A stretch of 64,000 bases of DNA from Isurus oxyrinchus (Eukaryota): the NCBI GenBank assembly GCA_026770705.1, contig JANJGN010001130.1:62001-126000 (forward strand), written 5' to 3'. Both the position numbers and the translations under genes were made by a program. A model generated the notes under the pieces. The model ran no database searches. It was not told the DNA's origin and was given only the letters and a program-made list of their open reading frames with translations. Below, one piece after another: positions 56,679-58,204 of this stretch; the first letter of the stretch is position 1; each line of letters begins with the position of its first letter.

Positions 56679-56783
56679 AAGAGAGGCGAGGGGAAAGCAG
56701 GAATCAAATCGAACCACCGTGTTGATGAATATCGAGGTCCTGTTTATGAAAACTGTGAGCGTGGTTGGGCTTTGAGGAATCAG
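56679..56783 (+). CDS. Cytoplasmic exon KRGEGKAGIKSNHRVDEYRGPVYENCERGWALRNQ
   Basis: ctctattacag|..CAG|gtgagt, 105 nt, phase 0-0, YEN motif. Confidence 0.65.
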
Positions 56784-56917
56784 GTGAGTCACACACCACA
56801 GGATCCCCAGCCTCTCAGCTGCTCCAGTAGCCTGGTTATTGATATGGCTGCTCCAGTCCTGTATCTGCAATGTTTTATACAGTCACTCCCAAACCCAACC
56901 AAACTCACACCCAACAC

Positions 56918-57990
56918 CATTCAGAATCAATAATCAAACCCCGTTCAGTATCAATAATCACACCCCGTTCAGAATCAATAATCAAACCCCATTCAGTATC
57001 AATAATCAAACCCCGTTCAGAATTAATAATCAAAACCCGATCAGAATCAATAATCAAACCCCGTTCAGAATCAATAATCAAACTCCGTTCAGTATCAATA
57101 ATAAAACCCCGTTCAGTATCAATAATCAAACCCCGTTCAGTATCAATAATCAAATCCCGTTAAGAATCAATAATCAAACACCATTCAGTATCAATAATCA
57201 TACCCCGTTCAGAATTAATAATCAAACACCGTTCAAAATCAATAATCAAACCCCGTTCAGTATCAATAATCAAACTCCGTTCAGGTTCAATAATCAAACA
57301 CCGTTTAGAATCAATAATCAAACTCCTTTAGAATCAATAATCAAACCCAGTTCAGTATCAATAATCAAACCCCGTTCAGAATTAATAATCAAACCCTGTT
57401 CAGTATCAATAATCAAATGCCGTTCAGAATCAATAATGAAACCCCGTTCAGTATCAATAATCAAACCCTGTTCAGTATCAATAATCAAACCCCATTCAAA
57501 ATCAATAATCAAACCCCGTTCAGAAACAATAATCAAACCACATTCAGAATCCATAATCAAACCCCTTTCAGGATCAATAATCAAACTTCGTTCAGGATCA
57601 ATAATCAAACACCGTTCAGTATAAATAATCAAACCCTGTTCAGTATCAATAATCAAAACCCATTCAGAATCAATAATCAAACCCCGTTCAGTATCAATAA
57701 TCAAACCCCGTTCAGAATCAATAATCAAACCCCGTTCAGTATCAATAATCAACCCCCGTTCAGTATCAATAATCAAACCCCATTCAGAATCAATAATCAA
57801 ACCCTTTTCAGTATCAATAATCAACCTCCGTTCAGTATCAATAATCAACCCCCGTTCAGTATCAATAATCAAACCCCGTTCAGTATAAATAATCAAACCC
57901 CGTTCAGTATCAATAATCAAACCCCGTTCAGAATCAATAATCAAACACCATTCAGTATCAATAATCAAACCCTGTTCAGTGTCAATAATT
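56918..57990. repeat. 24-bp minisatellite (ttcagaatcaataatcaaaccccg), ~44 copies
   Basis: Tandem units filling the intron between the two tail exons. Confidence 0.95.
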
Positions 57991-58087
57991 AATGTATCTA
58001 TTGTGGGTGGAATTTTCGATTTGGATCAATAATACTAAACACTGATCACTCTGATTGTCACTCTGATCATTTCTGTTTCTATTACAG

Positions 58088-58204
58088 AAGAAAGATGAGA
58101 AGGATCTGGAAATGAAATCTAACCGCGGAGTCAATCCTGATACAGATGATGATCTTTACGCAAACTGTGATTTTGCCAAGGATTCTGTTTATGGGAATTT
58201 ATAA
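58088..58204 (+). CDS. Terminal cytoplasmic exon KKDEKDLEMKSNRGVNPDTDDDLYANCDFAKDSVYGNL*
   Basis: ttctattacag| phase 0, TAA at 58202-58204; YAN and C-terminal SVYGNL. Not in the ORF track. Confidence 0.65.
   Translation, partial: KKDEKDLEMKSNRGVNPDTDDDLYANCDFAKDSVYGNL

Follow-up and report, generated by a model that had tools for sequence, protein, structure and literature searches.

A Siglec-like shark gene with a tandem YxN tyrosine tail, and its relatives in a large receptor cluster

Gene B and its tail exons

The window (the whole stretch of DNA analysed, 64,000 nucleotides of Isurus oxyrinchus) contains a tandem array of Siglec-like genes, whose nearest named proteins are those of the white shark and the basking shark. 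One of these genes, gene B, comprises eight exons (signal peptide, V-set, two more Ig domains, transmembrane segment, X, E1 and E2) in a single open frame of 463 residues, including a tyrosine tail of 106 residues (Table 1). The motifs that the original prediction had listed in E1 and E2 (PVYENC, DDDLYANC and a terminal SVYGNL) are present as described; the piece missing from that description was the linking exon X. The transmembrane (TM) exon ends in phase 2, so that X is required before E1. Splicing of TM straight to E1 was out of frame and was rejected. An alternative acceptor for X, at 56050, scored higher with a crude matrix but leads to an early stop, and RNA-type contigs use 56083.

Table 1. 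Positions in the window of the exons of gene B, of an intronic repeat, and of the tail exons of gene A
Feature	Position	Strand	Remarks
Signal-peptide exon (likely), gene B	40794..40833	+	Coding part, phase 1; closest such exon 5' of the V exon
V-set exon with Siglec features	47028..47396	+	F-strand Arg, Trp2 equivalent, B- and E-strand Cys
Second Ig exon, C2-set type	49119..49415	+	Identity to RefSeq shark Siglec models
Third Ig exon, C2/I-set	53745..54026	+	Domain search, open gene model
TM exon, B type	55287..55383	+	Uncharged 20-residue core; phase 2 end; RNA-type contigs of the paralogue splice from its donor
Exon X, first cytoplasmic exon	56083..56167	+	Phase 2-0, without signalling motif; on paralogue L022, joined at 5406-6115 and 6198-6710
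E1, duplicated cassette exon with PVYENC	56679..56783	+	105 nt, ag|...|gtgagt, phase 0-0; YENC at 56745
Intronic 24-bp minisatellite, E1-E2 intron	56920..57990 (approximate ends)	+	Sequence repeat
E2, terminal exon: DDDLYANC, seven residues, YGNL, stop	58088..58204	+	117 nt including stop; YANC at 58157, YGNL at 58190; enters in phase 0
Gene A tail exons (comparison)	14834-14915, 16533-16781 (span 14834..16781)	+	ITIM LLYTNI, ITSM TEYAQI

The V domain of gene B matched the Pfam families V-set and Ig_CD22 (Ig_3 was also matched in the protein), and its top PDB matches were sialoadhesin, MAG and Siglec-5, with similar scores (~1e-11). Its F-strand Arg aligned with the Arg of sialoadhesin and MAG. 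Three Cys and the A-strand Trp (the Trp2 equivalent) aligned with sialoadhesin, in the pattern of a putative B-E pair and an extra N-terminal Cys. The essential Arg is kept in 15 of the 16 V domains of genes with a B-type TM. The layout is that of the Siglec family, i.e., a type I membrane protein whose V-set domain is N-terminal, with C2-set domains after it. By sequence, the gene B product is a Siglec-family receptor, and it is predicted to bind sialic acid. The signal exon would be joined to the V exon across a 6-kb intron; a leader matching this exon starts the RefSeq shark models P0094 and P0091.

Splicing was studied by aligning contigs of public runs to L022, a paralogue that is near-identical and whose intron repeat is short. 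None of the runs is recorded as RNA and they were presumed to be RNA by guess, and the copies are too alike for reads to be assigned to gene B itself. In a first set, the GT..AG joint between TM and X was found on L022 in three of the four runs (X1, X3 and X7), and run X5 had no coverage of TM or of the joints. In a second set, the same joint was found on L022 in all three RNA-type runs (X1, X7 and X11), and the X-E1 and E1-E2 joints in two of them (X1 and X11); in X7, E1 had no coverage and neither of its joints was seen. All three joints were absent from the DNA-like run X16. One X11 contig of 1131 nt spans X, E1, E2 and the 3'UTR. The original prediction hinged on these exons being transcribed, and their joints were found, on the paralogue L022, in presumed-RNA runs. 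The joint between ectodomain and TM was not seen among the joints listed for RNA-type contigs; the open frame and the RefSeq models point to the predicted link of the ectodomain with TM and tail.

Duplication and conservation of the tail

E1 and E2 had been described as paralogous phase-0 exons with a common acceptor, and their comparison agrees with this: 51 of 69 nucleotides are identical when the exons are anchored at the acceptor. Their local DNA score is 60, while 1486 background windows reached 26 at most, and 10 of 38 protein columns are identical, KSN and YxNC among them. E1 was seen solely in models of galeomorph sharks, and YxN is kept in seven of the nine homologues having E1. The arrangement TM-X-E2, without E1, was found in models of the sawshark and the sevengill shark, in three ray genera, and in two copies on contig C34 of the mako's own genome. 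An isoform model of the white shark (P0090) also omits E1. From these gene models, which can miss exons, we infer that E1 is the younger duplicate of E2 and arose in galeomorph sharks. The ancestral tail would have been TM-X-E2, with two tyrosines, to which the duplication of E2 in galeomorph sharks would have added E1. As a phase 0-0 cassette E1 could be skipped, so that the tail would have two or three docking sites. In two paralogues, the minisatellite that separates the two exons measures ~190 and ~500 bp.

Homologues of the tail were found in lamniform, carcharhiniform and orectolobiform sharks, in the sawshark, in the sevengill shark and in rays. All 27 matches of a profile search were elasmobranch Siglec-like proteins, and none of these 27 came from outside the elasmobranchs; the search was word-limited and the motif short, which makes it a weak test. 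A query of 38 residues, itself a very short motif, gave two matches among 1.84 billion representatives, a catshark protein and a repeat protein that matched spuriously. Within the mako genome, pN/pS is 0.023/0.052 for E1 and 0.018/0.023 for E2, i.e., weak evidence of selection.

Motif counts were taken from 22 homologous tails chosen by eye, using a search pattern that demanded the last Asn; the count of this residue in the 22 tails is therefore not independent. The core of the tail lies in the terminal exon and reads acidic-[ILV]-Y-x-N-C, five to seven residues, Y-x-N-[VILM]. The first terminal Tyr is followed by Asn at +2 in 20 of 22 tails and preceded by a hydrophobic residue at -1 in 21 of 22, and its +3 position is C in 19, F in two and W in one. 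The distance to the second terminal Tyr is 9-11 overall (11 in 18 of 22, 10 in three, 9 in one). At +3 of this second Tyr there is V, I, L or M in 19 of 22 tails (L or I in six) and K, T or R in three, and its -2 residue is one of S, A and P (A or P in 11 tails). In a free alignment of 12 rows, both Tyr and the last Asn are invariant, and no other column is. The YxN core, which resembles ITT motifs and Grb2-docking sites, is thus conserved both at the first terminal Tyr (20 of 22) and at the last Asn (12 of 12 aligned tails). Had the motifs been private to one gene, the prediction would have lost its ground; they are kept in homologues across elasmobranchs. Some copies lack the Asn and retain the Cys (YKSC, YETC, YESC). 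Older-looking B-type genes without E1 (L130-L132, C34:15.13-15.18 Mb) have YKSC or YETC as the first terminal motif.

The TM core is free of charged residues, in line with the earlier proposal that the receptor needs no DAP12. The gene B class has neither the basic residue in the TM core nor the short tail of DAP12/FcRg-coupled Siglecs. The Lys preceding the B-type TM core is also found in the ITIM-type tails P0018, P0054 and P0057.

Three tail classes and one pool of V domains

We found 124 exact matches of an E2 23-mer in the genome and 95 matches of E1 (≤1 mismatch). TM exons (≤1 mismatch) gave 111 matches of the B type (YxN), ~226 of the A type (ITIM/ITSM) and ~229 of a type with a TM arginine, and contig C52 alone gave 32, 65 and 65 exact matches across the three TM types; these are exon matches and not gene counts, because many copies are broken and two contigs have near-identical stretches (possible haplotigs). 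Controls with reversed patterns gave 0 matches. The TM-arginine class already provides the cluster with the classical adaptor-coupled design, which makes the YxN tail a third class.

Among 40 sampled E2 loci, TM and E1 lie upstream of E2 in 27, and the other 13 are orphan exons. Tails were assembled from the 26 complete paralogues and the window (14 of the 40 loci, i.e., the 13 orphans and one locus without X, have no full tail and were left out). The frame is open in 24 of these 27 tails, none of the 24 having lost any of the three motifs, and a splice site is damaged in four of the 24. In L033, L039, L047 and L048 the AG of the E1 acceptor or the X donor is lost, and a NAGNAG 3 nt downstream could rescue E1. 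The orphan E2 exons (L031, L036, L041, L044, L046, L051, L052, L054, L061, L063, L067, L068 and L069) have a common upstream breakpoint block, and those inspected adjoin a Siglec gene, or its 5' block, on the opposite strand.

The V domains are not sorted by tail class. We compared 37 intact V domains from 600 kb of C52, nine further B-type loci and the window, leaving out 11 of 48 V exons that were broken or unparsed. Identity was 89.2% within tail classes and 88.6% between them (permutation p 0.11), with class assigned by adjacency and with one B-type-TM gene lacking E1 and E2. The nearest neighbour belonged to another class for 29 of the 37 domains, and V domains of different classes reached up to 98.6% nucleotide identity. 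The three classes thus draw on one V pool, in which diversity is about four times that of the tails (pN 0.10 vs 0.023). Near-identical ligand-binding domains on different tails, within one cluster, are what characterises paired receptors. Gene B probably represents a third output beside likely brake and partner-chain accelerator forms with the same outer domains.

Several further arrangements were observed. Between 400 and 1000 kb of C52, variation in the V exons is focused on the region from B-C to C-C', with length changes; many genes there carry V domains in tandem, from two to five of them, and the Arg is missing from several outer V domains. Copies of exon X, mostly with intact frame and splice sites, occur in the window (37948-38083, 40216-40351 and 60422-60557) and in the same part of C52. 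In most genes, of all classes, such a copy lies ~0.5 kb 5' of the signal-peptide exon, where a coding exon may have been recruited to serve as 5' exon or promoter block. The RefSeq models P0039, P0040 and P0093 run from TM-X on into the signal exon of the next gene. In the window (33148-38100), a second B-type TM exon (~36277-36373) follows a different type of ectodomain, without E1 or E2; self-alignment suggests a deletion equivalent to 55690-59390 of gene B.

E2 also ends a receptor with 14 Ig domains (L141-L145, C121:1418500-1450550; L146-L149, C150), in which the V domain lacks the Arg and the TM and first tail exon are of a separate kind. These loci are near-identical, possibly two haplotypes, and the catshark protein P0102 has the same arrangement. 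On L022 (7229-7616), an 839-nt contig of run X7 has 451 letters 5' of E2 that match neither E1 nor the intron, possibly representing this receptor type or a diverged exon.

The tail of gene B had been called unrelated to that of gene A. This stands for the DNA (local scores of 13-21, at background level) and for whole-tail profiles, and falls for the YxN motif. Homology of the whole tails was rejected: hhalign gave a probability of 6% and aligned the juxtamembrane CVRK alone (score 20, vs a shuffled maximum of 18). In 18 of 24 homologues, position +2 of the A-type ITIM is N, usually within YANI, so that YxN alone is no marker of activation. The main differences of this ITIM from the first terminal motif of B are L vs D or N at -2 (D or N in 18 of 19 B motifs) and I/L vs C at +3 (C in 16 of 19). 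A matrix derived from B gave scores above 8 to 19 of the 24 A-type ITIMs, when the 99th percentile for 924 other Tyr sites was 4.1; the control maximum (19.0) equals the top A score and is probably due to internal tails in fused models. The likeness could be a convergence on kinase-site preferences. The TM exons of A and B are clearly paralogous (~77% identity), but the whole tails lack detectable homology, and for this reason we regard a descent of the B motif from an ITIM as possible, and not more. In A-type genes (window 16533-16781; C52; also P0026 and P0037) the two tail exons are often doubled in tandem, ~3 kb apart, a parallel duplication of the ITIM/ITSM tail.

Proposed signalling by the tail and comparison with known systems

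By analogy with known receptors, the tail could be a multivalent dock for Grb2-family adaptors that is phosphorylated by kinases and gives co-stimulatory or phagocytic signals without an adaptor chain. We give this reading a probability of about 0.5. Clustering by ligand would lead Src-family kinases to phosphorylate the tyrosines of acidic-[ILV]-YxN, and the phosphorylated sites are predicted to dock SH2 adaptors of the Grb2 family (Grb2/GRAP/GADS). These would act through SOS-Ras-ERK, Gab-PI3K or Vav, and the output would be a positive, co-stimulatory or phagocytic signal that requires no partner chain. The preference of Src-family kinases and the paths downstream of the adaptors are general knowledge. 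In ITT motifs, YxN forms the core to which Grb2 docks (PMC4263166), with further support for the docking in PMC6286995 and PMC4810170, and it is conserved in frog and marsupial paired CEACAMs of the ITAM type or the ITAM-like type (PMC5112662, PMC2832619). Against a positive Grb2 dock, the copies that lost the Asn and kept the Cys (YKSC, YETC, YESC) are unexplained by pure Grb2 docking, and the ~229 TM-arginine exons mean that the cluster has an activating class without the YxN tail.

Docking of Grb2 might also have an inhibitory or modulatory output, by a bridge to SHIP or PMCA that would make the tail a phosphatase-independent brake. The YENV site of CD22 does serve inhibition, Grb2 and PMCA lowering calcium, and the Grb2 site of Siglec-10/G lies within inhibitory tails (PMC6286995). 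The first terminal motif also resembles the ITIM core of A. TIGIT uses a Grb2-SHIP1 route. We nevertheless find a brake doubtful, because both ITIM-defining positions are altered (D/N at -2 in 18 of 19 motifs, C at +3 in 16) and a large ITIM/ITSM class is already present in the cluster. It is unlikely, too, that the last two Tyr serve Syk/ZAP-70 as an atypical ITAM (D-x-x-YxxC-x7-YxxV/L/I), bound through their tandem SH2 domains, which would give the receptor an activation motif of its own as in CEACAM3. Their spacing (11 in 18 of 22, 10 in three) is within the range of the ITAM consensus (D/ExxYxx[LI]x6-8Yxx[LI], PMC5112662) in 21 of 22 tails, +3 is C, F or W at the first Tyr (22 of 22) and V/I/L/M at the second (19 of 22), and the Cys is retained where the Asn was lost. 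Yet the L/I of the consensus at +3 of both Tyr is found in 0 of 22 tails at the first and in 6 of 22 at the second, one homologue has a spacing of 9, and the duplication of E1 copied a single tyrosine motif.

A receptor for uptake, or a decoy, with little signalling and with motifs that are mainly YxxPhi endocytosis signals, seems improbable. The terminal Yxx[V/I/L/M] matches the endocytic pattern (PMC5112662) and the choice between uptake and activation is left open for ITAM-like CEACAMs (PMC2832619), but the conserved Asn, the acidic lead-in and the retained third site would go unexplained. That the terminal SVYGNL, earlier noted as a loose ITIM fit, is a working ITIM that recruits SHP-1/2 to a dual-function tail fared worst as a reading and appears very improbable: SxYxxL is a loose fit in the mako's own genome, as in 7 of 22 homologues, but none of the 22 fits the strict [ILV]xYxx[LV], -2 is A or P in 11, and +3 is K, T or R in three.

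Activating Siglecs are described as short-tailed and DAP12-dependent (PMC13358205, PMC7226832). The shark cluster resembles the primate paired Siglecs (Siglec-5/14, Siglec-11/16), where inhibitory and non-inhibitory genes of one cluster have V-set heads in common (PMC13358205). The activating primate members are short-tailed and use DAP12, a design whose counterpart is the shark TM-arginine class, with its basic residue in the TM; the shark adds a class with an uncharged TM and a tyrosine tail of 106 residues. In CD22 (Siglec-2) and Siglec-10/G, too, a Siglec tail holds a YxN site for Grb2 (PMC6286995), but it is a lone site amid ITIMs, and inhibitory, whereas the shark tail has YxN sites only, without a conserved ITIM. 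The ITT motifs of mIgG, CD28 and DAP10 share the YxN core for Grb2-family adaptors and are co-stimulatory (PMC4263166); they are single, that of mIgG being also YxxM, whereas the shark tail has a tandem of two or three, without a conserved M. In CEACAM pairs, the partner of an ITIM/ITSM receptor signals via its own tail, with GRB2-type YxN and phase-0 tail exons (PMC5112662, PMC2832619). These partners belong to another family and have an ITAM with L/I/M at +3 that is split by an intron; in the shark, both terminal Tyr are YxN in a single exon, with Cys at +3 of the first. We propose, by analogy, that the shark tail would work most like the YxN-bearing ITAM-like partners of CEACAM pairs.

A search of open-access literature found no published description of the shark Siglec tail, and the excerpts of PMC4536121 and PMC8455134 contain nothing on shark Siglec tails. 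The same tail is predicted in the automated RefSeq annotation of sharks and rays, in models that go by 'sialic acid-binding Ig-like lectin 13' or by 'MAG-like' (XP_078390091.1, XP_041037225.1) and offer no more than these names. According to PMC7226832, inhibitory CD33-related Siglecs are absent from fish genomes; its data are from teleosts. We tentatively suggest, as a wider picture for which the odds remain well below even, that elasmobranchs have a three-way Siglec system with one shuffled V pool, expanded to hundreds of genes in the mako genome and consisting of an ITIM/ITSM brake, an adaptor-coupled accelerator and a self-contained accelerator. The third output would be a previously undescribed hybrid, YxN-C-x7-YxN-[VIL], that docks Grb2-family adaptors, and perhaps Syk, derived from a disabled ancestral ITIM and carried on a portable terminal exon that also caps the 14-Ig Arg-less receptor. 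The motif is short and testable, and skipping of E1 would provide a natural contrast between two and three sites. If this picture is true, Siglec pairing and partner-free signalling exist in the earliest-branching jawed lineage, in parallel to the CEACAM solution.
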